Positions 20,197 through 63,317 of a stretch of 63,355 bases of DNA are shown here, piece after piece (position 1 is the stretch's first letter; each line of letters opens with the position of its first letter). The translations under genes were made by a program, and so were the position numbers. Origin of the DNA: Candidatus Eiseniibacteriota bacterium (GTDB taxonomy: Bacteria; Eisenbacteria; RBG-16-71-46); assembly GCA_031364845.1 (NCBI GenBank), contig JANLWX010000033.1:1-63355 (forward strand), given 5' to 3'. The notes under the pieces are model-generated. The model had not been told where the DNA came from. It saw only the letters and a program-made list of their open reading frames with translations, and made no database searches.

Positions 20197-20381
20197 AGGG
20201 GCTCGGTCCACAACCGGACCCTTACTTTCATCCTTGCCAGCCCCGTGCGCCGGGGCGGTCGAGCCGTCGGACACGACAACCCGCGCTTCGAGCCCGCGAG
20301 CTCCGCGGCAATCGGATCCCAAACGCGCGCACGCCGCGCAGCGCCGGCGCGGCGGTACATCGGCGATGCCGGATTCTAAGT

Positions 20382-20426
20382 TGGTGCGTCGCCTTGGAAT
20401 CGAACCAAGAACCTGCTGATTAAGAG
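20382..20426 (-). tRNA. 3' half of tRNA-Lys(CTT), att-site remnant 1 (not a full tRNA)
   Basis: Minus strand CTCTTAATCAGCAGGTTCTTGGTTCGATTCCAAGGCGACGCACCA: anticodon loop, T-arm, CCA; no D-arm upstream. Confidence 0.9.
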
Positions 20427-20464
20427 ACCCTAACCGCCGCCAGCTCGAAGCGATTGTCGCTCAC
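20427..20464. repeat. Integrative-element arm next to the tRNA fragment, copy 1 (short)
   Basis: accctaaccgccgccagctcgaagcgattgtcgctcac matches 32549-32586. Confidence 0.85.
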
Positions 20465-32331: not shown

Positions 32332-32503
32332 CCTCGTCAGAGTCCGAGGCACGGGCGCGAGGATCGCGGTCGTGGTGAAGCCGCGGAGACGAGTCGCCTG
32401 AATCGCCGATGCGCCGGGAGACTTCGTGCGCGCTGACGGGGCTCTCTTCCGCGTTCGCAGGACATCGGCGAACACGGCGGTAGCCTGTCGAATGCGCGAG
32501 GTT

Positions 32504-32548
32504 TGGTGCGCCGCCTTGGAATCGAACCAAGAACCTACTGATTAAGAG
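32504..32548 (-). tRNA. 3' half of tRNA-Lys(CTT), att-site remnant 2
   Basis: Minus strand CTCTTAATCAGTAGGTTCTTGGTTCGATTCCAAGGCGGCGCACCA; two substitutions relative to 20382-20426. Confidence 0.9.
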
Positions 32549-32688
32549 ACCCTATCCGCCGTCAGCACGAAGCGATTGTCGCTCAACATATTGCGAAGAA
32601 CCACAAGACGTTGCACGGGTTCAGCTCGGGCATTCTGAGGCGTTCGAAGGCATCCTGTGGAGCGCAAAACGGGACAGGTTGTCCCGCT
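32549..32688. repeat. Integrative-element arm, copy 2 (~140 bp)
   Basis: Shares cagcacgaagcgattgtcgctcaac and an identical 30-mer ggagcgcaaaacgggacaggttgtcccgct with 35556-35681. Confidence 0.9.
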
Positions 32689-32990: not shown

Positions 32991-33532
32991 CGCCCGTGAG
33001 GCGTCGATCCCTGTGGTCGTCGTCACCCCGAGTGCGGCTGTGTGGCTGGTCGCGGGAAGTCGGGCGCCCGGCCCTTCCTCTTACCGGCAGGGATGGAACG
33101 CCGGGTGGTGAGCAGTACCTTCTCTTATGCTCTGAGAGATGGGTGCCCTCGCGTAGGCGACCACGAGACAGCGCGCGGAACGGAATCGGTGACGAAGAGG
33201 AAAAGGACAGTAGTTTGCCGCCGTGAGCCCTCTGACAAGGGGCACCCCCCAGTTGTCCCACTCGCGCCATGAGCTAGATTCACTCGGTGCCGCCGTTGAC
33301 TTCCGGAACTCTGAGCCGCCCCCGCCCGTTTCAGGGTCGTGCCGATTTTTGGGTGCGCGAAATGCGTTGAGTGTGTCTTGAATGGATCCCAACGGGGTCT
33401 CCATCACCTCGACGTTGGAAGGTGTATCCAAACGTCTTAAGCTTCTAGGGTCTTATGCTCCGCTCGCCGAGATCCTTTGCCTAGATCCTTGATACGGGCG
33501 CATCTGTGACCAGGAGTCCAACGGGAGGACTT

Positions 33533-35494
33533 GTGTCGAGAGCTCGCGAACCTAGAGAACACGTTCGGATCTTCGTTGGGTCAACCTTCGAGGACCTGAA
33601 AAACTATCGGAGGGCGGTGAGGGATGCGTTGTCACAGCTCGAGATTATCGTGCGTGGCATGGAGTACTTCGGATCGAGGCCCGGCACTCCTGTTGAAGAG
33701 TGCCTTAAAGCTGTCAGATCCTGCAGGATGTATGTCGGGATCTTCGGCATGCGCTACGGTAGCATTCCCGATGGGCATGAACGCTCAATGACGCATCTCG
33801 AGTATGACGAAGCACAACTAAGACAACTGCCGTCGCTCATATATATTCTTGATGAAGCGCAGCCGCTATTGCCTAAGTACGTGGAAACGGGTCCAGGTGC
33901 CGAGGCGCTACGGTTCCTCAAGGGCCAACTTGCAAAGAGACATGTCGTCAGCAGGTTTACCTCTCCTGAGGATCTCGCGCGACGAGTACTCCATGACGTT
34001 CCTGAAGCCTTACGGAATATCGGCGCGAATCTGGATTGCGCATTCCCCGAACTCGCGCCAGCTGCTGCGGGACCTCAAGACAATAGCCCTGTACTCGTCC
34101 TCGCGAGCACAACTGGAGTGTCGCTGACAATAAACCGGGATTTTTTCAGTTTCGGCGAGGAGGACCAAGCGCACATCTTGCGGCGCATACGAGACATTCT
34201 TGGGGATGAGTTCAGTGGACCTATCCCTGTGCGGAAGAAAGAACCCGGGAGCGTTAGGCTCCTTGTAGAGTTGCCTCCAGAATTTGCGGAGCGACTCGTG
34301 TGGGCTGTACGGCAGGGACGCTTAGATGATTTGCAGGTGGTCACGGCAGATGTGGTCGACATCGAGCCTCTAGGGCGCGGTGAGCAAACTACAGAACCTG
34401 AAGATTACCGCGATGAACTCTCGAATCTAGCCTCGAGAACAGTAGAGGAGTCATCTCGGCAGCCCCCGCTGCCGACGCTAAACCCGCGGCAAACATTCGA
34501 ATCGTTCATCGTCGGGAGCAGCAATCGCTTCGCGCACGCAGCCGCGCTGGCCGTCGCGCAGAGCCCCGGAAGTTTCCAGCTGTTCATATGCGGCGGTATG
34601 GGCCTCGGTAAGACGCACCTACTGCATGCCATAGGAAATGCTGTGCTGCGGTCACACCCCGACGCGCGCGTCCTTTATGTGTCAGGCGAGCGCTTCACGA
34701 ACGAGATGATGTATTCGATCCAACACGCGCAGACCATGGCGTTCCGGAACAAGTACCGGAGTGTCGACCTGCTGCTGATCGACGACATCCAGTGCCTCGC
34801 CGGTAAGGAGAGTATCCAGGAGGAGTGCTTCTACACGTTCAACGCGCTGCGCGACGCCCACAAGCAGGTCGTCGTGACAGCCGACAAGCCGCCTAATGAC
34901 ATCCCGATACTCGAAAACCGGCTGGCATTGCAATTGAATCGCGACTTGATCGCGAACGTGCAGCAGCCTGATCTCGAGATGCGGATCGCGATCCTGCGCA
35001 ACCGCTGCGCCGCCGAGGGTGACAGCGAACGCGTGCCGCCGAACGTGCTGCAGCTGATCGCCGACCGCATCCGCAACGTCCGCGATCTCGAAGGTTGCCT
35101 CGCCCGGCTGCTCGTGATGGCCTCGCTCGTCGAGCGCGACATAACGGTTGACTTGGCGGAGGAGGTGCTGCACGAGTACGTCGACCCGAAGCTTGGTCAC
35201 CTTTCTCCGGAGCGCATCCTGGCGGTAGTGTCCGAGCGGTTCGGGGTCCGAACTGACGCTCTGCGCGGCAAGCGACGCACGCAGGCGGTGGCGCTGCCGC
35301 GACAGGTGGCCATGTATCTGCTGCGCCAACTCACGGATCTGTCGTTGGTGGAAATTGGGCGGCTGCTCGGCGGACGCGACCACACCACGGTGCTCTACGC
35401 GTGTGACAAAGTAGAAGTGATGCTGACAAAGGACAAAGAATTGGCGCAGATCGTGAGTGAGATCACAATCAGTCTCGCGCCACGGGGTTCTTGA
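33533..35494 (+). CDS. DUF4062 (TIR-like) + ~100-aa linker domain + DnaA domains III-IV fusion
   Basis: N-terminus IFVGSTFEDL...GMEYF...G.RYGS...S.THLEYDEA; from ~34478 LNP..TFESFIVG.SN, GLGKTHL, LLLIDDIQ, NVRDLEG, PRQVAMYL, GGRDHTTV; GGGAGG RBS before GTG 33533. Confidence 0.93.
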   Translation: MSRAREPREHVRIFVGSTFEDLKNYRRAVRDALSQLEIIVRGMEYFGSRPGTPVEECLKAVRSCRMYVGIFGMRYGSIPDGHERSMTHLEYDEAQLRQLPSLIYILDEAQPLLPKYVETGPGAEALRFLKGQLAKRHVVSRFTSPEDLARRVLHDVPEALRNIGANLDCAFPELAPAAAGPQDNSPVLVLASTTGVSLTINRDFFSFGEEDQAHILRRIRDILGDEFSGPIPVRKKEPGSVRLLVELPPEFAERLVWAVRQGRLDDLQVVTADVVDIEPLGRGEQTTEPEDYRDELSNLASRTVEESSRQPPLPTLNPRQTFESFIVGSSNRFAHAAALAVAQSPGSFQLFICGGMGLGKTHLLHAIGNAVLRSHPDARVLYVSGERFTNEMMYSIQHAQTMAFRNKYRSVDLLLIDDIQCLAGKESIQEECFYTFNALRDAHKQVVVTADKPPNDIPILENRLALQLNRDLIANVQQPDLEMRIAILRNRCAAEGDSERVPPNVLQLIADRIRNVRDLEGCLARLLVMASLVERDITVDLAEEVLHEYVDPKLGHLSPERILAVVSERFGVRTDALRGKRRTQAVALPRQVAMYLLRQLTDLSLVEIGRLLGGRDHTTVLYACDKVEVMLTKDKELAQIVSEITISLAPRGS

Positions 35495-35522: not shown

Positions 35523-35553
35523 TGGTGCGCCGCGAACGTATCGAACCTTCAAC
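35523..35553 (-). tRNA. Degenerate tRNA 3'-end remnant, att-site remnant 3
   Basis: Minus strand GTTGAAGGTTCGATACGTTCGCGGCGCACCA; same GCGGCGCACCA end as copy 2 with a different T-stem. Confidence 0.6.
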
Positions 35554-35555
35554 AC

Positions 35556-35681
35556 CAGCACGAAGCGATTGTCGCTCAACGTATTGCTAAAAACCACAAT
35601 AAGTTGCTGGGTTCTAGCTCGGGTACTCCCGGGTGGTCGAAGGCATCTCAGGGAGCGCAAAACGGGACAGGTTGTCCCGCT
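35556..35681. repeat. Integrative-element arm, copy 3
   Basis: Aligns to 32563-32688; contains the GGGACA/TGTCCC inverted motif. Confidence 0.9.
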
Positions 35682-50080: not shown

Positions 50081-50734
50081 TCACGGAGAACGCGTAAGGT
50101 ATCCCGACGTGCAGGTGATCCGACCGAGACACGGGTCCGCAATCCTTTCTATCTCGGCTCCGTATTGAGCGGTGCGAACGACGGCAAAGGCTCGAACCTG
50201 GCTGGTCGGGAAAGCGTCTCGGAGTAGCGATACGCTCGCGAGCAGGATCGCTCCCCTGGTAATGACGTCATCGACAACCACGATCTCGGTTGGGGTATGT
50301 CCGAGTTCCGCTTGGACGGTCATTGAACCGTAGTGGATGTTCGGTGAGGGCCGTTCGCCTGGAGCCGCGAAGGCTGCCTTTGGGACAGCCTTGACGCGCT
50401 TGAGCAAGGGGGAAACTCGGCTTCCAAAGCCTTCGACCTTCAAGGCGTCGCAGATTCGCTGCGCTGGCCATAGGCCGTTCTTGAGGGGTAGCGCACTGCG
50501 GGGTGCTGGGACCAGAACGACGTCGCCATGGAGGAGGGTCTCTAGCGCGGAGCCGGACCATTCTTCACGCAGACGCTTCGCCGCAAACTGCGACATAGTC
50601 AGGCCGCTGGAAAGGCGGACTGAGTCATTCTTCAGGCCGTACGTGATTGTCCGCGAATTCTGGGATACTTCCGAGCTTCCTCGCGGCGAGTAAACCAGGA
50701 AAGCGCCGAAGATCGCTTCAGAAAGCAGCGGCAG
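50081..50734 (-). CDS. Phosphoribosyltransferase-like protein coupled to DprA
   Basis: LVPAPRS; PRPP loop VVVDDVITRGA; overlaps the DprA stop; start probably CTG near 50734. Confidence 0.85.
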   Translation of the reverse strand: MPLLSEAIFGAFLVYSPRGSSEVSQNSRTITYGLKNDSVRLSSGLTMSQFAAKRLREEWSGSALETLLHGDVVLVPAPRSALPLKNGLWPAQRICDALKVEGFGSRVSPLLKRVKAVPKAAFAAPGERPSPNIHYGSMTVQAELGHTPTEIVVVDDVITRGAILLASVSLLRDAFPTSQVRAFAVVRTAQYGAEIERIADPCLGRITCTSGYLTRSP

Positions 50735-51416
50735 ACAGCTGCCTTCCGTCGGCTGGCAATACGTCGAGCAGATCCTCCGTGCTCGAGAGCAAACGAGCTC
50801 CGTAGCCGAGCATCTCCTGGGGCCAAGTAAGCGATCGGTTCTCAAGGACCGATTGCATCATGAACAGTGGGCGACCAAGCCGCAGCGCCTCCCAGCCTTG
50901 GGACAAAGTTCCGCTGGAATCTCCAGCTTCGACAATGACCGAGGCGTGGCACATGAGAGCCATTGTGCGATTTCTTCGCGGAAAATTCGAAGGCCTGACC
51001 GGATAGCCGATCGGAAATTCAGAAACAACCAGGTGTTCCCGAGCTAGCAGCTGCTGCAGTTCCGCGTGCTCTTTCGGATAGGCCTGATCAAGCGGCGTGC
51101 CGATCACGGCGATGGTCCTGCCGCCGGCCTCGAGGGCGGCGCGTTGCGCCGTCCCGTCGACCCCCTTGGCAAGTCCGCTGACGACGACTACGTTCCGCTC
51201 GACTAGTTCGCGAGCAAGCTTCGCCGCTCGTCGAAGACCGTCAGAACTTGCTTCACGTGATCCAACCATCGCTACGCGTACGGTGCCTTGGGCAAGACGG
51301 AAGTCACCCGCGGCGAACAGGCTCTTGGGCGCGTTAAGCGTCTCGATGTCGTTTAGCGGGCCAAGGAGTTCGTTTGGAGACAGGCTCTGAAAAGGCGGTG
51401 CTGGGATCTTGGCCAT
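50718..51416 (-). CDS. dprA: DprA/Smf (SLOG) family protein, short form
   Basis: VAMVGSR, VVSGLAKGVD, YPKEH, SEF, FPRRNR, VEAG..SGTL. Confidence 0.93.
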   Translation of the reverse strand: MAKIPAPPFQSLSPNELLGPLNDIETLNAPKSLFAAGDFRLAQGTVRVAMVGSREASSDGLRRAAKLARELVERNVVVVSGLAKGVDGTAQRAALEAGGRTIAVIGTPLDQAYPKEHAELQQLLAREHLVVSEFPIGYPVRPSNFPRRNRTMALMCHASVIVEAGDSSGTLSQGWEALRLGRPLFMMQSVLENRSLTWPQEMLGYGARLLSSTEDLLDVLPADGRQLSAAAF

Positions 51417-51611
51417 GGACGCCCTTTCTTCCGAGTTTGAGCTACGTCCTCAATCAGAAACTAGACGATTGAAGGAAGGGGATTCAACGGCCAAAATTAT
51501 CCCGTTGCCGCTTCCGTTGCCCTGGCGCCCGCCAAGCTCAAGCTGCAGGATGGACCAGCACCCTTGCCCAGCGGAGAGGATAGTCGCTAAACGATGCTAC
51601 CGCCATGGAGC

Positions 51612-52250
51612 ATGCAGGGCGATTTGATGCGCTTTTCAAGGCTGGATGGGTGCTCGATCCCGGTCTTCGCCATCGGCTTTCGAATCGAGGATAGCTTTGC
51701 GGATCCTTGGACAGAGCGATTCAACCAGTTCAAATTCGGCCATGCCACCCGACAGTCGGCCGCCATCAAAGGGGCCTGTGCGACCCTCCCGGCCGCAATT
51801 ATGTCCGCGGGCCTTCCGACTTCCGCCACGATTGTCTCGGCCATCGGGTCGGCGGACGTGACCTTGGACGTGAAAAGTCCTTTAGCGAAGTTGGGAATAG
51901 CGGTCGCTGCTCGGACCGGGTGGGACTGGCAGCCGGGTGTCCTGCAAAAGCGCGCGCATCAGTCCCTCAAGACCCTGCGTTCGGCTGAGGATCGGGATGC
52001 CATGGTCGGGGGGGTGTACACCGCCGGCGCCGTACAGGCCGCGACGATAGTCATCCTCGATGACTTCGCGACTCGTGGGTCTACGATCGAGGATATCGCG
52101 CGGGCGCTGCGCACTAGGCAGCCGACGATCGAGTTGTACGGCGTCGTGCTAGCCAAGAATGAGAGAATTGAGTGGTCGGAGCGTCTTGGGCAGCCTGTCA
52201 GCAACGGGCACATTCCTCGGCGACTCGAGGATCTTTGGGATACTGAATAG
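51612..52250 (+). CDS. Second phosphoribosyltransferase-like protein, divergent from DprA
   Basis: PRPP loop VILDDFATRGST; GGAG RBS. Confidence 0.82.
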   Translation: MQGDLMRFSRLDGCSIPVFAIGFRIEDSFADPWTERFNQFKFGHATRQSAAIKGACATLPAAIMSAGLPTSATIVSAIGSADVTLDVKSPLAKLGIAVAARTGWDWQPGVLQKRAHQSLKTLRSAEDRDAMVGGVYTAGAVQAATIVILDDFATRGSTIEDIARALRTRQPTIELYGVVLAKNERIEWSERLGQPVSNGHIPRRLEDLWDTE

Positions 52251-52281
52251 TTGTGCAAGGTCCCAGGAATTGTGAAGTTTG

Positions 52282-52878
52282 TCACCTACTCTTGGGCTGA
52301 TTCCAGACCACGTAGCGCTGGCGATTGACGCTAAGCAATGAAAAAGTGATGTACAGGGCGCCGGTCAGCCCTGTGGCTGCAAAGGCAGTCCCAAGCCTTC
52401 CCCAAAAGTCCAGCATCCAGCGCATGCGCTGGCCTTCGAAGGTAGTCGAGTCAATAAAGTGCGTGGGCTGAGAACCCCACAGGCAAATCGCCGCGAGTAG
52501 TAAGAAAAGGACGCCAGTGAAGGCCTCCGGTCCGCGCTCACGGAACGCGCGACGGAGCCGCCCCCGGACGAAGTTCCCATCGTGTATGACCTTTTCACCA
52601 TCCTTCTCTAGAATCTCTAGTGTACCAACCGGTTGAAAGGCGTGATCACGTACGCGCCAATGCCTCCGATAGTCGAGCACAAGCGATTCGCAGAGGTCCT
52701 CCGTGGCCTTGCGAACATCCGCGGAGTCATCACTCTCAATCCGAAACGTAAGAACATCGGGTTGTTCTCGGCTGACTATGCCCCACGTGTTTGTTCGAGC
52801 CCTAAAGACAGTCAAAACGTGACCTCGCCGAAGGTCACCCTGCTTGGGTTGTGGAATCGTCGCAAGAATACGCTCCAT
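52282..52878 (-). CDS. Hypothetical protein with two C-terminal TM helices
   Basis: ATG at 52878; hydrophobic segments FTGVLFLLLAAICLW and LGTAFAATGLTGALYITFSLL. Confidence 0.6.
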   Translation of the reverse strand: MERILATIPQPKQGDLRRGHVLTVFRARTNTWGIVSREQPDVLTFRIESDDSADVRKATEDLCESLVLDYRRHWRVRDHAFQPVGTLEILEKDGEKVIHDGNFVRGRLRRAFRERGPEAFTGVLFLLLAAICLWGSQPTHFIDSTTFEGQRMRWMLDFWGRLGTAFAATGLTGALYITFSLLSVNRQRYVVWNQPKSR

Positions 52879-53250
52879 ATGAGTTGTTACTTCGCTGCTG
52901 GACTGGTTTGGGTGGGGCATCCAGCCAAGGACATCGAGGATGACTGGCAAATGGTCATCTGGGATTCGCGTTTTCCATCGGCTTCTGGCCCGCATGCGGC
53001 ACGGCCTCCTCAATTGGGGGAGTGTTTGTCTGATTTGCACATCCGGCGCCCGTGTACACACGCGCGGTCCGGGACACAAACGCGCACTCAATTAAGTGTG
53101 AAGAACGTTCGGTGACGACGCCACAAATAGGCTATCCGTGCCTCGCACGCCTTCAACTAGCTGAAGAACATGGTGTTTTGCGCCGTCTATTCTGGTCCCT
53201 TGGCTCCTGATCCCATCTTCCAGTCCATTTGTGGACAGAAACTGTAGCCA

Positions 53251-54270
53251 CTACCAGATTGACGCGGAAGTGGAGTCGAAAAATTCGACATCCAGCGCCG
53301 GCTTCCTGGTTCTCATGGTCTGCAGTGCGACTGCTCGCCTCTTCAGCGATCTGTTCCCCGGACCCTCGGGATCACCATGGATCCCGACGAGCAGGTTTGT
53401 CACCTTGCTGTGGACAATCGCGCTCAAGATGTGATCATCGGAAGCCCCGAAGGAGAAACCTACCACGACGAGGGTTCCTCCGATGCTCGTGAAGCTGCGA
53501 TAGGCTCGGGACAGGTAGTCGCTGTGACGAATACGACGCATCTTACTGCGACTATCCCCTTCTGCCACGAATAGCGGGTAGTAGTCTTTCGCCAACGCTT
53601 CCCGGATCTGCTCGAGTAGCCGAATACCGGTGCGCGTCCATGTGTACTTTTGGAGCTCGTCCCCGGCATCAAAGATGTGTAATCCACCGTGTAAGTAGAA
53701 GATGCGTTGACGGTCCGTCTTTTCGACGTCCCACGTAACGTAGGGTGCGTGTCTGTCCTCGGGGGCGCGAAATCCGTCATCACACTCAATTGCAGGTTGA
53801 AGCTCATCCTGCATGAACGCCCAATACATGAGCAGATCGTAGTTAAGTGAATAGATGCGATCAAAGCGAGCCAGAAAGTGCCGGCACCGCTCGTAGCTTG
53901 CATTGCTAATCTCGGCCGGGAACGGAGGATGGTTGCCGGCGATTGCCTCGACAAGTACTTCGCGAAGAGAGCTCGCATCACTTCGCATTGCCTTGCTCCG
54001 TGGTGTGGGCGTGCCGTCGTAAACCTCGAGTAGGGCTGCAGCGCTTCGCATCGCACGCATCACGATTTCGAAGTCTGTCGTATTGAGCGCTCCGAACGCC
54101 GCCTTCGCCTCCGCCGAGCACTTTTCGAAGTCCGCGCGCTCAAACAGCGACTTGTACGAGAAGATGTCATCGCGACACGCCCTGCTGAACCCATTTCCCA
54201 ACAGGACGTGCGGTTTCTTGTCGGGCGAGTGTTTCTTGATTGCCTTGTCGAGAGTCAATTGTATGGCCAT
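53251..54270 (-). CDS. DUF4917 (SIR2-like) protein
   Basis: LLGNGFS, YSLNYDLL.YW, DDGF, YLHGGLH, PLFVAEG, GFSFG.SD.HI; AGGAG RBS. Confidence 0.9.
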   Translation of the reverse strand: MAIQLTLDKAIKKHSPDKKPHVLLGNGFSRACRDDIFSYKSLFERADFEKCSAEAKAAFGALNTTDFEIVMRAMRSAAALLEVYDGTPTPRSKAMRSDASSLREVLVEAIAGNHPPFPAEISNASYERCRHFLARFDRIYSLNYDLLMYWAFMQDELQPAIECDDGFRAPEDRHAPYVTWDVEKTDRQRIFYLHGGLHIFDAGDELQKYTWTRTGIRLLEQIREALAKDYYPLFVAEGDSRSKMRRIRHSDYLSRAYRSFTSIGGTLVVVGFSFGASDDHILSAIVHSKVTNLLVGIHGDPEGPGNRSLKRRAVALQTMRTRKPALDVEFFDSTSASIW

Positions 54271-54364
54271 CTCATCTCCTTGAGTCGCACGCCAAGGTCG
54301 CGCCAGCTCTTACGCGTCGAAGGCGCCGTAGCTTCACGAAATAAGGTGACGGAGCACAAGAGGG

Positions 54365-55600
54365 CTAGAGATCTTGCCACTCTTCGTCGTCCGTGCGTAC
54401 GCGAAGGATGAACCTGTCCAATAGCGGAACCGCCAGAGAATATTTGGCCCACCGATTCTTGTAGACTAATCCGGCGTCACCAAGGGATGCGAGCATTTGG
54501 TTAACGTGACTTGGGCTAAATGCTTTGGACAACACGCGCTGACTACTTTCCACGATGTCCTGAACAGTAAATTCGGAATCGGAATTATCAAGCTTCGCGA
54601 TAGCCCACAGAAGATCGCGTTGGCGATCAGTGGCGCGAGACCATCGTCCCGCGAAGAAATCGGCGTCAAGCTTGCGCGTAATCTCGTCCATGGGTATCGG
54701 GGCCAGTGCATGACCGGAGGCAGCATCAGACACCCAGATGTCGAAGCATTCCCGGCACACATATTGAATAAAGTAGGGATACCCGGCCGACATATCTGCA
54801 ATCGTCTCGACAGAGGCGGACTCGAATTGTACGGGACACTTAGCATCCGCAATCGGTTTCAAAATGGCTTGGCGAGTAGCGACTGGGTCGAGTGAGTTAA
54901 GGCTGATCACATGGAACATCCGTTCCGCGTATGTGCGGGCCTCAACCAACTTCGGAAACAGTGTCGGCAATCCCGTCAAAGCAAGCATGAAAGGGATTTC
55001 TTGTCGCTGTATCGACTGAAAGACATCTAGAAGCAATGAGAGGGGGTACTCCTCTTTCGCTGCATGATCAGAAAGGTTCTGGGCCTCGTCATAGGCGAAA
55101 ATGATGCCACGCTTGCCAGTGTGACGGAGAACTTTCCAGACTTCTTGAAGTACCCGTTTGAGCTTGTCGGAGCTGAGTCCAGGGGTGTTATGAAATTGAT
55201 CTTGCAATGCTTGGTAGTCGAGAACGCGATGGGCCAGGCCTGGTGTTTCTGAATCGTCGTGGCCCGCTTCCGGCACGATACCAAACGACCTCGTGGCCAC
55301 GGACAAGTCAGTCAGCAAGCGAACAACGACGTTGATCTCGCTCAACGTTGCTGACTCGGACAAATCGGTCCCAACCCATACCCAGCCCGCGGATAGAGCA
55401 ATTGGCTTGAAGGTCTCAAGCAGGACGGTTTTCCCCACGCCTCGAAGCCCTGTCAACACAAGACTTTGCAGGACAATGTCTTGGCGGAGCAGTCGCGCAA
55501 ATTCTTCGATTTCTGACTCCCTGCCAGCCAGATACCTCGGCATGTGGCCGGCCCCTGGACGGTAGGGATTAGCGAACTTTTCGAATTGAGCCTTCGGCAT
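54365..55600 (-). CDS. AAA+/STAND-like ATPase with a probable C-terminal winged HTH
   Basis: NPYRPGAG..P..LAGRE, GLRGVGKT, DEAQ, GYPYFIQ, L...GLVY. Confidence 0.9.
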   Translation of the reverse strand: MPKAQFEKFANPYRPGAGHMPRYLAGRESEIEEFARLLRQDIVLQSLVLTGLRGVGKTVLLETFKPIALSAGWVWVGTDLSESATLSEINVVVRLLTDLSVATRSFGIVPEAGHDDSETPGLAHRVLDYQALQDQFHNTPGLSSDKLKRVLQEVWKVLRHTGKRGIIFAYDEAQNLSDHAAKEEYPLSLLLDVFQSIQRQEIPFMLALTGLPTLFPKLVEARTYAERMFHVISLNSLDPVATRQAILKPIADAKCPVQFESASVETIADMSAGYPYFIQYVCRECFDIWVSDAASGHALAPIPMDEITRKLDADFFAGRWSRATDRQRDLLWAIAKLDNSDSEFTVQDIVESSQRVLSKAFSPSHVNQMLASLGDAGLVYKNRWAKYSLAVPLLDRFILRVRTDDEEWQDL

Positions 55601-55688
55601 GGACGCTCCGCAAGTAAAAGGTGCACCGGAGCTTAAAGGAATCTGATAGGCAACTCAAGGCGTAATTACTGGTATGACTAAATTAAGC

Positions 55689-55718
55689 TTGACGGCTAAA
55701 TGTTCATTGGTTTATCCT
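55689..55718 (+). promoter_or_regulatory. Candidate sigma70 promoter for the CBASS operon
   Basis: TTGACG-18 bp-TATCCT in an AT-rich divergent intergenic region. Confidence 0.4.
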
Positions 55719-55849
55719 TCGGTTGTGACTCCCCGCAATTTCAAAGGCCGGAGCCCCTCGGCTCGGGAATGTGACCTGAACGCACCGAAGAAGCCCCAGA
55801 CGCTAGCTGAATATGCGCCAAGCGCCCCGCCAGCGCACAACAGGGAGAG

Positions 55850-55912
55850 AAGGAAGTTGCGATCGTCGTCCATGGCCGGCCAAAGGTTGTCGAGAAGACC
55901 ACGATGTCGTTC
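55850..55912 (+). pseudogene. Possible relic of a multi-ubiquitin (Ubl) domain
   Basis: Startless frame reads KEVAIVVHGRPKVVEKTTMSF, resembling the Multi_ubiq N-terminus (I.VNGRPK.V....LSF). Confidence 0.45.
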
Positions 55913-56007
55913 CGTACTACCCGCCTACGCAAACGCTCAGCTCGAAATTGTTTACCCGCTCATCCATCAGCCACACTGTATGTGGCGTAACAAAAAGAGA
56001 AGAAACC

Positions 56008-56241
56008 ATGGGAAAGAAGAACATCCACATCGTCCCCGCAGACAAGGGCTGGGCGGTGAAACGCGAAGGCCAGAAGCATCCGATCTCGGAGCATCGTACG
56101 CAGGAGAACGCGGACAAAGCGGGACGACCAATCGCACGACGGGATGGTGTAGAGATCGTTACTCACGGCCGCGACGGTCAGATCCGCGACAAAGACAGTT
56201 TCGGCAGTGACCCGAACCCGCCGAAAGATCGGAAGCATTGA
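56008..56241 (+). CDS. DUF2188 family protein
   Basis: HIVP...GWAVK.EG......TQ..A...GR..A......H..DG.IR..DSFG.DP.PPKD. Confidence 0.93.
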   Translation: MGKKNIHIVPADKGWAVKREGQKHPISEHRTQENADKAGRPIARRDGVEIVTHGRDGQIRDKDSFGSDPNPPKDRKH

Positions 56242-56261
56242 TCGGAGTCGGAAGGAACCAC

Positions 56262-57389
56262 ATGTTCACTACACGGACTGATTACCTCGACACACTTCTT
56301 GCCTACATTTGCGAGGAGCTGCAGCTATCCGAAGCCGCGCACGCCGCCGCCGAACATCGCTACCATGCGGTCGGCGACTGGCTCAATGCTCCGGGTAGTA
56401 CGCTCGCGGCATGGAGGCCGACGATCTACCCCCAAGGTTCGTTCCGCATCGGCACCTGCGGCCGGCCCCTCACCGGTGCGGAGTTCGACCTCGATCTCGT
56501 CTGTGAACTCGACCTCGGCATCAAGCAGGTATCGCCGCTCGTTCTCCTCAACATGGTCGAGCATCGGCTGCGGCAGCACTCCGTCTACAACGGGATGATC
56601 GAGCGCAAGAAGCGCTGCATCCGACTCACGTACGCGAACGAGTTCCACCTCGACGTGCTGCCGGCGCGGCCGACGTGGCCGCCTGATGGGACGCAGGTGC
56701 TCATCCCGGACCGCGAGCTCGAGGCATGGCTTCGGAGCAACCCGAAGGGCTACGCCGCCTGGTTTTGCGGCCGGACCGAGCTGTACTTCGCCGAGCTGCG
56801 CAAGCGCGCCGTCGAACCACTTCCCGATCACGAGACGGCGAAGGAGAAAACCCCGCTGCAGCGCGGCGTGTTGCTTCTCAAGCGGTGGCGTGACGTGGAC
56901 TACCAGAAGAATTGTGACGCGGCACCGCGGTCAATTGTTGCGACGACTTTGGCGGGCAACTTCTACCGCGGCACGCTCTCGACCGGCGAAACCTTCGGTG
57001 ACATCGTCCGCTCGATCGCGACAGCGACCGCCCAGAACGGGAACCCCTTGAGGGTGGTAAATCCGGCTCAGCCGAATGAAGTTCTCAGTGAGCAATGGGA
57101 GCGTCTGCCCGAGACGTATCGACTCTTCAGGGCGAGGATCGCGGCACTGAATGCGACGTGGACGACGATCCAAGAGACTGGGACGATTGAAGATGTTGCA
57201 GCGGCGCTCGGCGTGCTGTTCGGCGACCCCGTCACCCAGCGGGCATTCAAGCGCTTCACGAAAGAGCAGGTGGAGACGCAGCGCAAGAGCGGCACCCTCG
57301 GCGTCGCACGCGCCACTGGCGCGCTCGCGATCGCGTCGCTTCCGCGTACCGCGCCCATCCGTTCGAACACGTTCTATGGCGAGGAATAG
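56262..57389 (+). CDS. CBASS CD-NTase (cGAS/DncV-like nucleotidyltransferase)
   Basis: QGSF.IGT, EFDLDL, FHLDVLPA, SNPKGYA.WF, PLQR.V.LLKRWRD, C-terminal NTFYGEE. Confidence 0.95.
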   Translation: MFTTRTDYLDTLLAYICEELQLSEAAHAAAEHRYHAVGDWLNAPGSTLAAWRPTIYPQGSFRIGTCGRPLTGAEFDLDLVCELDLGIKQVSPLVLLNMVEHRLRQHSVYNGMIERKKRCIRLTYANEFHLDVLPARPTWPPDGTQVLIPDRELEAWLRSNPKGYAAWFCGRTELYFAELRKRAVEPLPDHETAKEKTPLQRGVLLLKRWRDVDYQKNCDAAPRSIVATTLAGNFYRGTLSTGETFGDIVRSIATATAQNGNPLRVVNPAQPNEVLSEQWERLPETYRLFRARIAALNATWTTIQETGTIEDVAAALGVLFGDPVTQRAFKRFTKEQVETQRKSGTLGVARATGALAIASLPRTAPIRSNTFYGEE

Positions 57390-57813
57390 GCCACCAGGAC
57401 CAGGGCGACTGAGCCCCGCCCAACAGTCGGCGATGATGCTCTCGGGCTGGCCGGGATTTCGACTCGTCTCCCGCGGCAAGCGTCACGTTTGGGAGGGCAC
57501 GCTTCGGCCGACCCCGTTGAGTCAGGTCTACACGGTCAAGATCTCGTACGCCGACTGGGAGAATCCCAAGGTCCTCGTCATCAACCCAGTGCTTGAGCCG
57601 CGAGCCGATGGCTCGATTCCCCACCGCTACGGAGACGAGAGCTTGTGCCTCTACGTGCCGGGGCAGTGGACCCGCGCGAACTACATCAGCGAGGCCATCA
57701 TCCCGTGGACGGTCCTCTGGCTCTATCACTACGAGATCTGGCGCGTCACCGGCGAATGGCTCGGGGGCGGCGTTCATCCGCTCAAGTCTTCAACTGAATC
57801 GCCGCACCCGTGA
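57376..57813 (+). CDS. Stand-alone E2-like protein of type II (short) CBASS
   Basis: WEG.L.PTPLS..Y.V.I.Y, IPHRY...LCLY, IIPW...WL..YE.W..TGEWLGGG.HP; overlaps the CD-NTase end. Confidence 0.88.
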   Translation: MARNRPPGPGRLSPAQQSAMMLSGWPGFRLVSRGKRHVWEGTLRPTPLSQVYTVKISYADWENPKVLVINPVLEPRADGSIPHRYGDESLCLYVPGQWTRANYISEAIIPWTVLWLYHYEIWRVTGEWLGGGVHPLKSSTESPHP

Positions 57814-58727
57814 AAAACTTTCGCATCCTTTCCATCGACGGGGGCGGAATCAAGGGCGTGTTTCCGGCCGCCTTCCTCGCCGCGATAGAGCGTTCCATCG
57901 GCAAGCGCATCGCCGACCACTTCGATCTACTGGTCGGCACCTCCACGGGCGGGATTATCGCTCTCGGTCTGGGACTCGGATTCACGGCCGAGGAGATGCT
58001 CAATTTCTACCAAACGCACGGCCCGAAAATTTTCCCAAGCTCATGGTGGCAGCGGATGACGCGCGGCGCGCGCGGCCTCGTCCAGTCCCGCTACGACGCC
58101 TCGGTTCTCCGTACGGCCCTCGAGGACGTGTTCGGCGACAGGAAGTTGGGCGACGCCAAGAAACATTTAGTCATCCCGGCGACGAGCGCGAACACAGGCG
58201 ACGTGTACATCTACAAGACTCCGCATCACTCGCGCTTTCAGATCGACCAACATGAGAGCGCGGTCAATGTCGCCTTGGCCACAGCAGCTGCTCCGACGTA
58301 CTTCCCCGCCCACGTAGCCCCGACAGGAGTGACGCTGCTCGACGGCGGCCTATGGGCGAACAACCCGATCATGGTCGGAGTGGTGGAGGCCATCGCGATC
58401 CTGGAGCAGCCGCGAGAAGCCATCCGCGTGTTGAGTCTAGGGTGCACGACCACACCAATGCGTCTCAGCGCGTTCGCTCGCCGAACCGGGGGGCTTGCCG
58501 CATGGGCAAAGCCAGCGGTTGCGTGGGTCATGCGTGGGCAGGCGGTTACCGCGACGAATCAAGCGGGGCTGCTCCTCGGAAAGCAGAACGTGCTGCGGAT
58601 TCAACCCGAGGTTGCCGCCGGCGTGTTCGCGCTCGACAACGCCGGCTCTATTCAGGAACTTATCGGCTTGGGCAACGAGCAAGCCCGCTTCCATTGTGAT
58701 CAAGTTGAAGCCACTTTCATGAGCTAA
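57810..58727 (+). CDS. capV: CBASS patatin-like phospholipase effector
   Basis: ILSIDGGGIKG, GTSTG, AAPTYF, DGGLWANNP; GTGA overlap. Confidence 0.92.
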   Translation: MKNFRILSIDGGGIKGVFPAAFLAAIERSIGKRIADHFDLLVGTSTGGIIALGLGLGFTAEEMLNFYQTHGPKIFPSSWWQRMTRGARGLVQSRYDASVLRTALEDVFGDRKLGDAKKHLVIPATSANTGDVYIYKTPHHSRFQIDQHESAVNVALATAAAPTYFPAHVAPTGVTLLDGGLWANNPIMVGVVEAIAILEQPREAIRVLSLGCTTTPMRLSAFARRTGGLAAWAKPAVAWVMRGQAVTATNQAGLLLGKQNVLRIQPEVAAGVFALDNAGSIQELIGLGNEQARFHCDQVEATFMS

Positions 58728-58917
58728 GAATACCGTGACCCAGGGTTCATGTTCCGAATCTGCCGATGGGCCGGTATTTCGACCTTGCCATGTCATGGCT
58801 GCCGGTGTTGCGCTGACGTAGCCAGACGCTTGTCGACGGCTGCTGGCCAAGCCTATCTCAAGCACCTACGTCTGGGTGGGAGCGAGGGATGACCAAAGGC
58901 GAAACGGAGTTTGATCG

Positions 58918-59388
58918 ATGAACAAGAGAGAGCAGAGAAAGTCTGCCTACAAGCGGTTTCGCCTCGATCCCCCAACAGTGGAGCTCCGGCCCGATGGTTC
59001 CGAACGTCAGATGGATCTCGTTTGGATCGAGATCATGAAAGACGAGACAGGCCGTTATCTGGCGGCCGTCGGCGATCGTTACGTCCTCCGACTTAATTTC
59101 GACCATATCCGCGAGACCGTTTCGAACCCTACTCCCGGATCGCGGACCGGCCACGACGCGGAAGCGACATTCCTCCTCAAGACGCAGGTCGTATTCACGG
59201 CCCAGGTCCCAAGCGGCATCATTCATCGGCCACTTCGTCACGACAGCATCACCCGCCGCCGTGTGCGCAGGGCTGATCAGGCGGTCGTCATTCCACTCTC
59301 GGGTACCGCGAACAAGACCTCCGAAGCAGCCTGGATCGGGATTCTCGGCATTGCAGTCCTCGCCCTCATCGGACGTTTGAAGATCTAG
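58918..59388 (+). CDS. Hypothetical protein with a C-terminal TM helix
   Basis: GGAG RBS; 156 aa; hydrophobic tail WIGILGIAVLALIG. Confidence 0.6.
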   Translation: MNKREQRKSAYKRFRLDPPTVELRPDGSERQMDLVWIEIMKDETGRYLAAVGDRYVLRLNFDHIRETVSNPTPGSRTGHDAEATFLLKTQVVFTAQVPSGIIHRPLRHDSITRRRVRRADQAVVIPLSGTANKTSEAAWIGILGIAVLALIGRLKI

Positions 59389-59440
59389 GCGGGGGCCTGC
59401 CTGTTCCGGGAAGCTGCCCCACATCATTCGGTGTAGGCAC

Positions 59441-59694
59441 GTGTATGTGGCCCTCGGCATCAGCGTCGAGGGCAAGAAGGAAGTGCTTGGCCTGGGGATC
59501 GAACCGAACGAGGGCGCCAAGTTCTGGCTGAAGGTGGTCACTGAACTCAAGAACCGCGGCGTGCTCGCCGCGCTCAGCGAGTTCGAACGGAAGTGGGGCG
59601 ACCGCTACCCGATGGTCCGCGAAGAACGGCGGATGTTCGAAGGACAACTGCCCGCGTGCCCGGAAAGGGCTTACACAGAAATCTGGACACGCTC
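59441..59694 (+). mobile_element. IS256-family relic (transposase fragments + right end)
   Basis: YVALGI..EGKKEVLG....NEGAKFWL.V.TELKNRGV joined to AL.EF..KW...YP; terminal TTACACAGAAATCTGGACACGCTC. Confidence 0.88.
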
Positions 59695-59761
59695 TCTCTG
59701 GACTCGAAACGCGCCAATATGACGAACGACAAGCTCCACCCTCACCTCGTGACCAACCATG

Positions 59762-60469
59762 TCACTCGTCGTCCTTGCCCGCGCTCAGCGAGGAGCCGTC
59801 GGTGAACAGGATTGTTTTGGGCTCCCAAACGATCTTCATGTTCTCGTGCTTTGTGCCCACCCAGCGATTGTGGTCGTCCATGAACTGGTTGTAGTTCCAG
59901 TACCGCGACGCACGCCTGTTCGATCCAGCCATGAGCACGTCGTCCTCCTTGAGACCCAACCGAATGATCTGGTCGCCGAACAAGTCGTTGAAGACCAGCG
60001 TCCCCTGAAAGCCACGGATGTCCTTGCCCGAATGATTCGTGAACATGACCTTGCATGCCATCGAGGCATCATACTCGCCTTGGGCGAGGCGCTTCTCGTA
60101 GACTGTGACAGTGACCGCCTCACGCAGTATGGCACGTTGCTTCTCGGCTTCCGCTCTTGCGTGGACAATCCGAAGGCTCTCCTCATGCGCTTCAGTCGCG
60201 GCGTGAGCCTCGGCTTCGCGTTCCTCCTTGATGATTGCTCCGATAGTTTTCCCGACCGGAAGAGATGGCGTCTTGCCACCGAAGGCATCCTGGAGCGCTG
60301 AGCGCATCACGTATCGTTGAAGGAGTCCGACTTCTTCGACCGTGAGATCGTGGCTGTTCCTGATGTCCTGGAGGATCCTGTCTTTGTTTTCAGCGGTGAT
60401 CGTCTTACCTTTAACCCCACCGCAGCCGATAAGGCTGAGTACAAGAAGGAATTTGGCAAGTACCCGCAT
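59762..60469 (-). CDS. Hypothetical lipoprotein
   Basis: GAGGAG RBS; lipobox LIGC; NHSGKDIRGF.G.L.F.DLFG, YNQF, F.DGS. Confidence 0.8.
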   Translation of the reverse strand: MRVLAKFLLVLSLIGCGGVKGKTITAENKDRILQDIRNSHDLTVEEVGLLQRYVMRSALQDAFGGKTPSLPVGKTIGAIIKEEREAEAHAATEAHEESLRIVHARAEAEKQRAILREAVTVTVYEKRLAQGEYDASMACKVMFTNHSGKDIRGFQGTLVFNDLFGDQIIRLGLKEDDVLMAGSNRRASRYWNYNQFMDDHNRWVGTKHENMKIVWEPKTILFTDGSSLSAGKDDE

Positions 60470-60543
60470 CGCGGCTCCTCTGCTGGCGCCGCGTGTTCAA
60501 CGTGGCCGACGCCGGTTGAGTCTGCTTCGGCTGGTGATCGCCC

Positions 60544-61395
60544 ATGGATGAGCGACAATCGGGCAAGAATTCGCATACTCTCGTGGATCTGGTCGCCCAG
60601 CGCAACCACGGCCTCACCTTCGACTACGAAAGCGCCAACGACATGGCTGAGCACATGATCGAAGATAGGATCCCGTGCGACTGGCGCGACCTCCAATTGG
60701 AGGTCGCCAAAATCCTCGAGGAGTGCGGTCTCGATGTGGAGGTCGAGCGACGCGTACAAACCGTCCGAGGTGCGTTGGAAATTGATGTCCACGCGCGCGA
60801 GACGACGCAATCGCCTGCCATGACATACATCTGCGAATGCAAGCATTGGAGTCGCCCAGTTCCTCGCGAGGTCGTCCATGGGTTTCGAACCGCTGTGGCG
60901 GATTACGGGGCTCACGCAGGTATCATCATTTCAACGGCTGGTTTTCAGAGCGGTGCACATATGGCTGCCAAGAACACAAATATCATCCTCGTGGACTGGC
61001 GTGGGTTCCAGCAACTCTTTCTAGATCGATGGCATGCGAAATTCGTCGACCGCCTGGATGCGATAGCGAGGCCTCTGGTAAACTACACTTACGACATGTT
61101 GCGCACTGTTGACAAGAAAGCCACATGCATCCCCAATTTCGACTTGGATAGGCTTCGCGACCTCCAGGGGCGATTCGAGTTTCTTGCACGACTGGGAAGT
61201 ATGCCACGACTGTATCTCCGCGATAGAGCCGAGCGCGCCCCCAAGCTGCCGTTTGAAGTATCGGACGTGCTTGTCGGGCGAAAGGACCAGATCACATCCT
61301 ACAGATCATTTGAAGAGTTCTACAGCGAGATCGTCCCTCCTGTTCTTGATCTTTTCGATCGAATGTTTGGTGAAGCCATGAGATGCAATGAGTAA
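60544..61395 (+). CDS. Mrr-like restriction endonuclease
   Basis: EIDV...ICECKHW..PV, G...G.IIST.GFQSGA; true start may be ATG 60643 or 60655. Confidence 0.88.
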   Translation: MDERQSGKNSHTLVDLVAQRNHGLTFDYESANDMAEHMIEDRIPCDWRDLQLEVAKILEECGLDVEVERRVQTVRGALEIDVHARETTQSPAMTYICECKHWSRPVPREVVHGFRTAVADYGAHAGIIISTAGFQSGAHMAAKNTNIILVDWRGFQQLFLDRWHAKFVDRLDAIARPLVNYTYDMLRTVDKKATCIPNFDLDRLRDLQGRFEFLARLGSMPRLYLRDRAERAPKLPFEVSDVLVGRKDQITSYRSFEEFYSEIVPPVLDLFDRMFGEAMRCNE

Positions 61396-61687
61396 TTGTC
61401 TAGCTTGTAACCGCCTCACAAAGCGCCTCGTTGATCATCATTGATATGAGCGGCAGCTGTGCGTCCCGGGATTCCGCAGGCACAGGAAGGTGAAGTACAC
61501 GTGTGCCCTGAGATCTGGCTGTGTCTAGCGGGGTCCAGCGGATCAGACGGCGAAGAACGCCAAGCGATTAGCAAGCCCAGGGCACTTCTGAAGGGAACTC
61601 AGAGGTGCCTGTCACGACGACTCTTCGTTGAAGGTGCGACAATGGCTAAACTTATGCTGACCTAGATCCAGTTGCGCCGTAGCCACT

Positions 61688-62248
61688 CTAAAGGGCGAAC
61701 ATTCTGAAAACGGAGACGAGCAGGAGCGCAATCCAGAAGACTCCACTTCCAGCATAGAGCAAATCAAGTCCCAGACTGTGGCTTATGAAGCGGGACATTC
61801 TCACAGACATGGGTGTTTGTGACCAGCCCAGCCGTGGTCTGTCAGGCTCTCGCCGCCTTGGGAGGTCGTCACTAATCGGCGTTGTCGGAGGAGGGAGCTT
61901 GTACTGCCGGCTGAAGAGGCCGGCATACCAGTCCCTGCCGGTGAGTCCCCAATGACGATGCTCGATCTCGATGGCACGATGAGCAATATTCTCGAACAAC
62001 GCCCGGCTGCGCAGTTCCAGAATCCACAAACAGAGCGTCAGCCACAACGCAAACACGGAACCGCTCGCTCGAGCGGGCCAAGCGGTGTCTCGGCCAAGAA
62101 CGGCGCCAGCTAGAAAGCCAATCGCGGCAACGTAGAGTCCTGCAATCGTGAAGCGGCTATTTACGAGCTGGCCATGATATTCATGGACGGCAGCGTATTC
62201 TGTCCGGAGGTTCTCGGGATCAGGGTGGGAGAGGGGATCATCGTTCAT
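61688..62248 (-). CDS. Hypothetical membrane protein (about 3 TM helices)
   Basis: ATGA overlap with the integrase stop; hydrophobic segments; EY...R...RA.EIE pattern. Confidence 0.7.
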   Translation of the reverse strand: MNDDPLSHPDPENLRTEYAAVHEYHGQLVNSRFTIAGLYVAAIGFLAGAVLGRDTAWPARASGSVFALWLTLCLWILELRSRALFENIAHRAIEIEHRHWGLTGRDWYAGLFSRQYKLPPPTTPISDDLPRRREPDRPRLGWSQTPMSVRMSRFISHSLGLDLLYAGSGVFWIALLLVSVFRMFAL

Positions 62249-63195
62249 GTGCGTTGCCTTTCTGGAGGTCCACACACAGGTCGAAGGTCATCCACGATAC
62301 CCTTTCGGCCATTGAGTGGATGTTTCGCGATCTGCGATCGCAAATGCACGGGACTTGCCGCCAGGTAGCCGGTCGTGGTCGTGATGCGATCGTGTCCCAT
62401 CATCTGGGAAAGAGCAAAAATCTCACAGCCACCCTCGATCATCAGCGTCGCAAATGTGTGCCGAAGTGCGTGGAGGCGGAAAGCGATGCCGCTTGCGACC
62501 CGCAGTGACCGGACCAAATGCCTCAGGCCCTCATCGGTCAGACCGGCATCGGAGGTGGACGAAGGAAAGGCTGCAAGGCACCACTTCCCCGCCCTGCCGC
62601 GTTCTTTCAAGTAGCGTCGCATGATGTCAGCGTAGGTTGCGCTCAGCGGGACTATCCGATCTTTTGCGCCCTTACCGTGACGGACAAGGAGTGCGCGTTG
62701 CTCGAAATCGAGATCCGCCACTTCCAAGTGAAGAAGTTCCTTGCGGCGCAGGCCGGCCCAAATCACAGTCGCGAGGAGCGCGTGATTTCGGTACCGCTCG
62801 AATTCCGTTCGCCACCGGTAGTTCAAGACCTTCTCGAGAAGCAGCCGAGCCTGATCTTCCGGTAGGCGCCTCGGAAGAGTCTTCTCCAGGCGCGGCAGGG
62901 CGACTCCAGCAGCTGGATTCTCGGTGAGGTGGCCGCCATCCACGCACCAACGAAAGAAGACGCTCAGTGATTTGTGGTACGTCAGGTACGTCTGCGTGGA
63001 CCAGTGCCGCTCGGCGCGGCCATGGTAAAAGAAGGAACGCACGACTGCAGTCGTGCAGTCTTCGAGGCGATCTACACTTGTTGCACGTTGAAAGAGCGTC
63101 GCGACCACGCGATAGCGATTGATCGTCGCGGGAGAGTAACCACGCAAGTAGTGTGCTTCGTCGCACATCTGCTGGCAGAGAGCATTGATATTCAT
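62245..63195 (-). CDS. Tyrosine recombinase/integrase (XerC/D-like architecture)
   Basis: GLRRKEL (R), GKGAKDR (K), HALRHTFAT (HxxR), MMGH, Y nucleophile in TTTGY. Confidence 0.95.
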   Translation of the reverse strand: MNINALCQQMCDEAHYLRGYSPATINRYRVVATLFQRATSVDRLEDCTTAVVRSFFYHGRAERHWSTQTYLTYHKSLSVFFRWCVDGGHLTENPAAGVALPRLEKTLPRRLPEDQARLLLEKVLNYRWRTEFERYRNHALLATVIWAGLRRKELLHLEVADLDFEQRALLVRHGKGAKDRIVPLSATYADIMRRYLKERGRAGKWCLAAFPSSTSDAGLTDEGLRHLVRSLRVASGIAFRLHALRHTFATLMIEGGCEIFALSQMMGHDRITTTTGYLAASPVHLRSQIAKHPLNGRKGIVDDLRPVCGPPERQRT

Positions 63196-63317
63196 ATACT
63201 TATGCTGTACATTACCCACTGCGCCATCAGTCGGAACGCCCTGTTCCGGTGCGGATGTGGTCGAATCATGTCGTCACGACCGGTCGCTTTGGGCCAACCT
63301 TAGCCAGAAATCACCAT

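Follow-up and report, generated by a model that had tools for sequence, protein, structure and literature searches.

Of the phage sensors characterised to date, most rely on direct recognition of phage proteins or nucleic acids. Bacterial TRADD-N proteins (PF20694), as set out in the text and table of Kaur et al. 2021 (eLife, PMC8195603), are predicted systems in which a TRADD-N domain lies between an effector and a variable domain and carries a Gly-Ser (GS) motif at the β2-β3 turn. A second related group is covered by the main texts of two preprints (bioRxiv 10.64898/2026.05.01.722283 and 10.64898/2026.09.04.749371), in which DUF4062, renamed NIR, is an anti-phage NAD-degrading enzyme (NADase); according to the former, E97 of KpSwz is required for defence and oligomerisation activates NIR and TIR enzymes. 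Here we analysed a contig of 63,355 nt from a Candidatus Eiseniibacteriota bacterium (JANLWX010000033.1, GenBank assembly GCA_031364845.1; this whole stretch is called the window below), in which a single gene, the fusion gene, joins a NIR/DUF4062 domain, a TRADD-N-like domain and domains III and IV of the replication initiator DnaA.

Drawing on the architecture, the retained catalytic glutamate, the GS motif, the second-copy status of the DnaA part, its uneven erosion, the island setting and the repeated capture of partners within the TRADD-N family, we tentatively favour, at somewhat less than even weight, the reading that the fusion may act in abortive defence as a one-gene system of the effector-TRADD-N-variable type that carries a disarmed DnaA copy as bait, that is, an integrated decoy. 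Following the model of Kaur et al. 2021, the TRADD-N domain would hold the NIR NADase off through contacts with both of its flanks. The DnaA copy, which would keep nucleotide binding and the domain IV surface and form no origin-melting filament, would be tolerated by a cell that also has its genuine DnaA. The bait would then be bound by an inhibitor or hijacker of DnaA from a phage or mobile element, and this binding would cluster or release the NIR domain, whereupon NAD+ would be depleted and the infected cell would arrest. In principle, there are plausible triggers: one protein of a cryptic prophage is said to bind DnaA, and a phage protein reportedly blocks the related loader DnaI.

Pfam matches above the gathering thresholds covered DUF4062 (residues 21-103), Bac_DnaA (325-482) and Bac_DnaA_C (568-636), where residues are counted from the GTG at 33506 and 9 is subtracted for the start at 33533. 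The PF13271 match scored 83 bits against a cut-off of 24.7. Glu99 aligned with the residue counted as position 97 of the KpSwz (Swarozyc) chain 10wc_A, which is Ala there, consistent with an E97A construct, and the catalytic Glu was invariant in 18 of 18 aligned rows. Together with the 2026 preprints on DUF4062, this alignment supports the NADase-type effector that had been proposed in a preliminary description of the window, made from the sequence without database searches, and the N-terminal part is probably an NAD-destroying immune enzyme. The closest DUF4062 domains (48-67% identical) are joined to unrelated C-termini, none of them DnaA. Members of the same DUF4062 clade without TRADD-N are fused to xanthine/uracil permease, PF04073 and PF00563 (EAL-like) (P0004, P0007, P0010, P0021, P0009, P0006, P0015, P0018).

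The middle domain is a predicted TRADD-N-like switch domain. The preliminary description had noted an unnamed domain of about 100 aa here; the domain is indeed present, and its TRADD-N-like identity had escaped notice. TRADD-like_N (PF20694) matched the domain itself with 17 bits (E 0.0053), below the cut-off of 23.7, and NCOA6_TRADD-N with an E of 0.023; the Atlas lead for the TRADD-N assignment was 0.83. Our hand counts cover 150 of the 161 homologues (11 were unlisted), and among these 150 a PF20694 match with E <= 0.001 stood among the top five families in at least 25. The RRM-like fold with a uS motif in the β2-β3 turn that characterises bacterial TRADD-N domains was present. The domain occurs once, with the effector on one side and the variable domain on the other, and at the turn the Gly was kept in 149/150 and the Ser in 144/150 homologues. 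In the fold search of the domain, no row stood clear of generic folds, SEA-like folds being tied with RRM folds, and no solved TRADD-N structure was found in the fold searches or in a PDB sequence search, which is not evidence against the assignment. The cleavage site of MUC1 is Gly-Ser. Since SEA domains are described in PMC10556640 as being cleaved within a β-hairpin, we speculate by analogy that the invariant Gly-Ser turn may self-cleave in a similar manner.

The fusion ORF (open reading frame) is a real gene, as its junction was bridged in two samples and a normal dnaA-dnaN pair lies elsewhere in the genome. A single frame without stops runs from 33506 or 33533 to 35494, and the GTG at 33533, with GGAGG 4 nt upstream, agrees with the start positions of homologues. 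Pfam found no DnaA_N in the fusion protein, which thus lacks the domains I-II of a DnaA initiator, and the TIGR00362 alignment begins at profile position 85. The frame and the Pfam matches confirm the preliminary description, in which an uninterrupted ORF joined DUF4062, a middle domain and DnaA domains III-IV, with domains I-II absent and GC-richer codons in the DnaA part; GC content at third codon positions (GC3) was 0.46-0.60 in the N-terminal parts compared with 0.72-0.89 in the DnaA parts. A chimeric junction near 34470 had also been considered there. One contig of run X1, which may be the source, spans 32519-34857 with zero differences, and a contig from X2, another sample taken in that study, spans 34323-34601 with zero differences over the junction; both are assembled contigs, not raw reads. 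Although the fusion is present in one assembly only, this bridging by single contigs in two samples, together with the fact that the searches returned no parent dnaA more than 72% identical, makes an assembly chimera or a binning artefact extremely improbable. One contig of run X4 skips 32551-35522 with only 27 nt on one side; because a repeat explains the skip, it was not used. No promoter or terminator above chance was found, and no RNA data set containing the sequence was listed.

The canonical dnaA of the same genome lies beside dnaN on contig C116, so the separate copy that the preliminary description had wanted confirmed exists. The two copies are 68% identical, and the fused one duplicates a host protein, as an integrated decoy would. 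Walker A (GGMGLGKT), Walker B (LLLIDDIQ), sensor II (NVRDLEG) and the DnaA-box motifs (KRR..PRQ and RDHTTV) are kept and box VII reads RLALQL, all as described before, and domain III contains two short in-frame deletions. All 119 other top matches to the DnaA part are DnaA proteins of ordinary length and at most 72% identical, and some names among the nearest indicate Ca. Eisenbacteria. In a tree of 48 rows, the end branch of the fused copy was 0.61 against a median of 0.068 (about 9x), and the copy was not grouped in the starred clade with the host's own dnaA, a placement that the long branch makes unsure. The synonymous distance (dS) was at least 0.73 to each of 30 canonical genes, and the GC3 of the DnaA part (0.793) was lower than that of all 30. 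The long branch, this dS, the exclusion from the host clade and the low GC3 point to a donor that was a relative in the host's family, not the host's own dnaA, and to a capture that was not recent, contrary to the recent capture proposed in the preliminary description.

Conserved columns were changed at 31/182 positions in the fusion; 120 canonical proteins showed 2 such changes at the median and 9 at most. The changes were unevenly spread, with 25/142 in domain III and 1/34 in domain IV (Fisher p 0.03; neutral simulation p 0.006-0.015). The three-point ratio of nonsynonymous to synonymous change (dN/dS), a rough estimate from pairwise distances, was 0.28 overall (canonical median 0.18), with 0.22 for IIIa, 0.54 for IIIb and 0.18 for IV. 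We take the DnaA part to have diverged after capture, with domain III eroded and domain IV spared. Such divergence is also what would be left if an effector-TRADD-N cassette had taken up a dnaA fragment by island recombination and the DnaA part were drifting with little or no function. The changed columns, the low GC3, the singleton status of the fusion and the one-member clusters and fragments among its sister fusions (see below) are in line with such decay. However, domain IV was spared (p about 0.01), no stop has arisen and both deletions are in frame, dN/dS is well below 1, the same type of capture recurs in unrelated phyla, and a RecA copy in a sister fusion has stayed intact despite a synonymous difference (pS) of at least 0.5. 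We therefore consider a decaying chance fusion fairly unlikely.

The roles of filament and single-stranded DNA (ssDNA) residues in Bacillus subtilis DnaA are described in the texts of PMC6669920 and bioRxiv 10.1101/2022.03.18.484894. In the fusion, the equivalents of R264, F218, I190 and T225 are Q476, C430, M402 and I437, whereas those of K222, R202, R206, L269, G317 and R321 are kept; H231 was omitted from the set because it is Tyr throughout the family. Activation by oligomerisation, as put forward in the preliminary description, is weakened by these four changes as far as a DnaA filament is concerned. A related possibility is that the protein is a DNA sensor, in which domain IV would bind DnaA-box arrays on plasmids or phages, or exposed oriC copies, and clustering would activate the NADase. 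The selective preservation of domain IV and the activation of NIR/TIR enzymes by oligomerisation speak for such a sensor. However, the host chromosome carries its own DnaA boxes (one perfect and three with one mismatch near the canonical dnaA), so self-activation would need explaining; moreover, filament residues are lost, and reading DNA is not what sister partners such as S1, L7/L12 and AhcY do. Overall, we regard DNA sensing as unlikely.

Loss of the arginine finger with retention of the DNA- and nucleotide-binding motifs is also what would be expected of a chain terminator. The protein could then regulate a host process, halting replication under stress by binding to oriC or to promoters under DnaA control, or by poisoning filaments of native DnaA, with the NADase acting locally or secondarily; the sigma-type and XRE helix-turn-helix (HTH) domains of other family members, counted below, are compatible with such a role. 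We think this distinctly improbable, since a search of 205 further genomes of the phylum did not find the gene, the NIR domains examined to date serve abortive defence according to the main texts of the NIR preprints, and no DnaA boxes were found near its own promoter. Boxes were lacking both in 32550-33560 and, past the gene, in 35495-36400.

The TRADD-N family provides a wider context for the integrated-decoy reading. Among the 150 homologues, there were 60 with TIR/SEFIR, 14 with EAD, 7 with DUF4145, 9 with XRE-HTH and 2 with PNP domains. The partners included 22 sigma-type domains, 8 proteins that are ribosomal or IF-1 (four S1, one of these by a weak S1-domain match, and S6, L25, L7/L12 and IF-1), 2 CSD/RRM domains, 3 nonribosomal peptide synthetase (NRPS) modules and 2 STAND domains. 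More than 60 aa flanked TRADD-N on both sides in 110/150. The 127 C-terminal parts fell into 88 clusters (78 singletons), the 118 N-terminal parts into 33; the apparent variety of partners is inflated because the protein library was clustered at 50%. When ten housekeeping fusions were checked, nine were one-member clusters at 90% too, and some sister partners were fragments. The TRADD-N tree was poorly resolved (14/148 branches starred) and partner types were no more clustered than in shuffles, which fits repeated capture without proving it. A motif scan of GTDB gave 23 loci, of which 13 were true members (8 from Planctomycetota, 2 from Bacteroidota and 1 each from Calditrichia, KSB1 and Longimicrobium); 4 weak CpaB-like matches and 6 loci without a profile match were dropped.

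In each of the three genomes checked, the core-gene partner was a second copy beside the native gene: the RecA fusion of Runella sp. MFBS21 is 93% identical to native RecA, the RpsA fusion of a Saprospiraceae bin 90% to native RpsA, and the AhcY fusion of a Phycisphaerales bin 77% to native AhcY. The fused Runella RecA differed at 13/297 conserved columns against a median of 0, with a nonsynonymous difference (pN) of 0.039 and a pS of at least 0.50 to 20 native recA genes. This fusion was found in 1/301 genomes of its family, and its gene comes after bSEFIR, TIR-APAZ/pAgo and PDC-M50A genes. PADLOC also matched neighbours at loci L044 and L037, and the single gene scanned at L047 was unmatched. 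The decoy idea of the preliminary description thus gains support from the TRADD-N-like nature of the middle domain and from a family that repeatedly holds second copies of core host proteins.

Several observations weigh against an integrated decoy. The fusion is a singleton: no second DUF4062-DnaA fusion was found in 25 other N-terminal matches, 119 other DnaA-part matches and 119 other long DnaA proteins, and the TRADD-N profile matched 0/263 of the proteins from those searches, which shows rarity rather than absence because the searches score about 8000 candidates only. Viral contigs gave 3 pattern matches, 0 of them confirmed, and the TRADD-N family was found in 1/206 genomes of the phylum. 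A lack of homologous fusions combined with a dN/dS near 1 had been named in the preliminary description as a sign against its idea; the lack of fusions was borne out within these searches and the dN/dS near 1 was not. That ratio, however, takes in the normal history of the unsampled donor, and the open frame alone is weak evidence, with a stop-free outcome in 11-17% of neutral simulations. With the rest of domain III as background, the changes at filament/ssDNA residues (4/10) did not reach significance (p 0.075), nor did the box VII cluster after scan correction (p 0.075), and a spared domain IV would be just as compatible with DNA sensing. The known defence genes are separated from the fusion gene by about 15 kb or more, with an att-like border in between, and at several other family loci no obvious defence neighbours were seen in the ORF lists, of which only some genes were scanned. 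Finally, most partners among the 150 homologues are not essential genes (12 kinases, 6 sugar transferases, 6 TPR/HEAT and many unassigned).

The locus is a tandem island array (Table 1). The fusion gene is the sole long ORF of a 3-kb unit between att-like repeats and has no operon partner. The tRNA portion of the left repeat (32503-32548) is identical at 46/46 nt to tRNA-Lys on contig C34, where the intact tRNA-Lys(CTT) adjoins an integrase-like ORF; the right repeat is 83% identical over 126 nt, with a tRNA remnant at 80%. No Rfam match or intact tRNA was found in the window. Of 20 other ORFs scanned with PADLOC, 7 gave matches, all to the right of the gene, and the fusion protein itself gave a single weak match, to an ATPase. 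This island setting, with its ShosTA-like, PDC-S21 and CBASS (cyclic oligonucleotide-based antiphage signalling system) matches, supports the defence role proposed in the preliminary description. As also stated there, no dnaN, rpmH or recF was recognised in the ORF lists of the window, in which not every ORF was family-scanned.

Several further observations were made along the window. An arm motif is common to the three tRNA-Lys 3′ halves, and run X4, which belongs to another study, has a similar arm after a tRNA fragment, which is suggestive of a family of integrative elements. By eye, the stretch 32733-33026 (-) seems to be a broken remnant, similar to the C-terminal domain found in the large secreted proteins of 20499-23678 and 23966-27364, and the 1201-aa ORF at 5953-9558 (-) has an N-terminus like pyridoxal phosphate (PLP) aminotransferases and a C-terminus like phosphoenolpyruvate (PEP) carboxylase. 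The similar stretches at 12800-13579 and 27791-28428 (-) are probably a duplicated small gene of two left-hand island units. Between 36408 and 47408, island genes have few family matches and include a membrane protein with a pYEATS domain, a Tle1-like phospholipase domain and a 626-aa ORF without a family; 41922-45316 is a possible pair of a peptidase and a metallo-β-lactamase (MBL)-fold hydrolase. Outside the window, a 671-aa Longimicrobium DnaA (P0297) with an unusually high score and many AAA matches possibly has a doubled ATPase domain.

Table 1. Coordinates of the fusion gene, its parts and surroundings in the window, and of related TRADD-N fusions at other loci (L numbers).
Feature	Positions	Strand	Remarks
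Fusion gene	33533..35494	+	653 aa (662 aa from GTG 33506); NIR/DUF4062 - TRADD-N-like - DnaA III-IV
DUF4062/NIR domain, probable NADase	33557..34030	+	Pfam core 33566-33814; PF13271 E 1.7e-23
Predicted catalytic Glu99	33800-33802	+	in DUF4062/NIR domain
TRADD-N-like domain	34103..34360	+	RRM/ferredoxin fold; 161 homologues; model pLDDT 93
Gly248-Ser249, β2-β3 turn	34247-34252	+	in TRADD-N-like domain
Linker	34361..34468	+	low pLDDT, GC3 0.46; fusion junction near 34468
DnaA domain III (AAA+)	34469..35173	+	Walker A (34592-34615), Walker B and sensors kept; box VII eroded
Gln476 in place of arginine finger	34931-34933	+	in DnaA domain III
DnaA domain IV (DnaA-box-binding HTH)	35207..35413	+	conserved columns nearly unchanged
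att-like repeat: 3′ half of tRNA-Lys(CTT) (32503-32548) and conserved arm	32503..32688	-	left border of 3-kb unit
Degenerate second att-like repeat	35523..35681	-	28 nt past stop codon; right border of unit
Third copy of tRNA-Lys 3′ half and short arm	20381..20463	-	94% over 83 nt
Defence island	50081..63219	.	PADLOC matches and integrase-like ORF
ShosTA-like pair	50081-51416		PADLOC
PDC-S21	53251-54270		PADLOC
CBASS cyclase-E2-phospholipase	56238-58727		PADLOC
Integrase-like ORF	62245-63219		judged from sequence, no Pfam scan
SEFIR-TRADD-N-RecA (full second RecA)	L045:5287-7176		Runella sp. MFBS21, NZ_JARNTW010000011.1
SEFIR-TRADD-N-RpsA	L056:2-1189		Saprospiraceae bin; cut by contig end
Cyclase-TRADD-N-AhcY	L035:1-1614		unpublished genome G208; cut by contig end
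SIR2-TRADD-N-MinD/ParA-like ATPase	L046:4924-7290		
TIR-TRADD-N-NRPS module	L055:2637-6896		
Nucleotidyltransferase-TRADD-N-TIR	L037:5505-7994		beside PDC-M30 pair

Effector-TRADD-N-variable proteins are known, and the order of domains and the GS motif of the fusion protein agree with them. The table of Kaur et al. 2021 includes one DrHyd (DUF4062)+TRADD-N+TIR+TPR protein and extracytoplasmic function (ECF)/sigma-type HTH partners. The C-terminal partners there differ, being repeats, STAND NTPases, caspases, PAS, GUN4 and HTH domains; the TRADD-N table, as searched, has no entry for DnaA, ribosomal, CSD or RRM partners, and "DnaA" and "decoy" are absent from the main text. Swarozyc, Vulcan, Vesta and PsAvs2, as presented in the main texts of the two NIR preprints, likewise combine an N-terminal NIR domain with its Glu and a C-terminal sensor in one gene within defence islands. 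However, they sense phage proteins by direct binding, through an HTH-like auxiliary domain, HEAT repeats or STAND-TPR, where the fusion has DnaA III-IV; DnaA, TRADD and decoy are absent from these main texts, although the supplements may list such fusions. With canonical DnaA (TIGR00362; B. subtilis 8BTG), the fusion shares domains III-IV, 72% identity to the nearest canonical protein and the Walker A/B and sensor motifs, whereas it has no domain I-II, is not at the origin, is a second copy and has changed equivalents of R264, F218, I190 and T225. In open-access text, we found no earlier description of a DUF4062-DnaA fusion, of TRADD-N with core host-protein partners or of a bacterial family that uses recognisable core-gene copies as integrated decoys.

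It is quite possible, though we would not put it at even odds, that a NADase or other effector and one TRADD-N family make up a widespread integrated-decoy platform that captures core host proteins as baits (DnaA, RecA, S1, S6, L25, L7/L12, IF-1, sigma factors and cold-shock proteins), possibly freed by Gly-Ser self-cleavage. If so, each captured partner would name a host protein that some invader targets, which would yield a list of phage-host interactions yet to be described, those of anti-DnaA factors included, and the partner catalogue would map the host proteins attacked by phages in uncultured phyla, with the fusion as its DnaA member. The Runella SEFIR-TRADD-N-RecA, which comes from an isolate genome, would be the best experimental entry to the family, and the GS motif a first experimental handle on bacterial TRADD-N domains.

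Decoys have been invoked before in bacterial immunity. Inactive enzyme copies were proposed as decoys in other systems in the text of Kaur et al. 2020 (PMC7159879), and integrated-decoy mimicry was hypothesised for bNACHT11 in that of PMC11702601, in this case without a recognisable copy of a host gene. A parallel is found in the integrated decoys of plant NLR (nucleotide-binding leucine-rich repeat) proteins, such as the RRS1-WRKY model, in which a copy of a host protein is likewise fused into an immune protein and its original activity may be lost. Unlike those, the fusion has no NLR/STAND core, and the binding of an invader's factor is here a proposal; nevertheless, a spare copy of a host target joined to a cell-killing enzyme would amount to the integrated-decoy strategy of plants.

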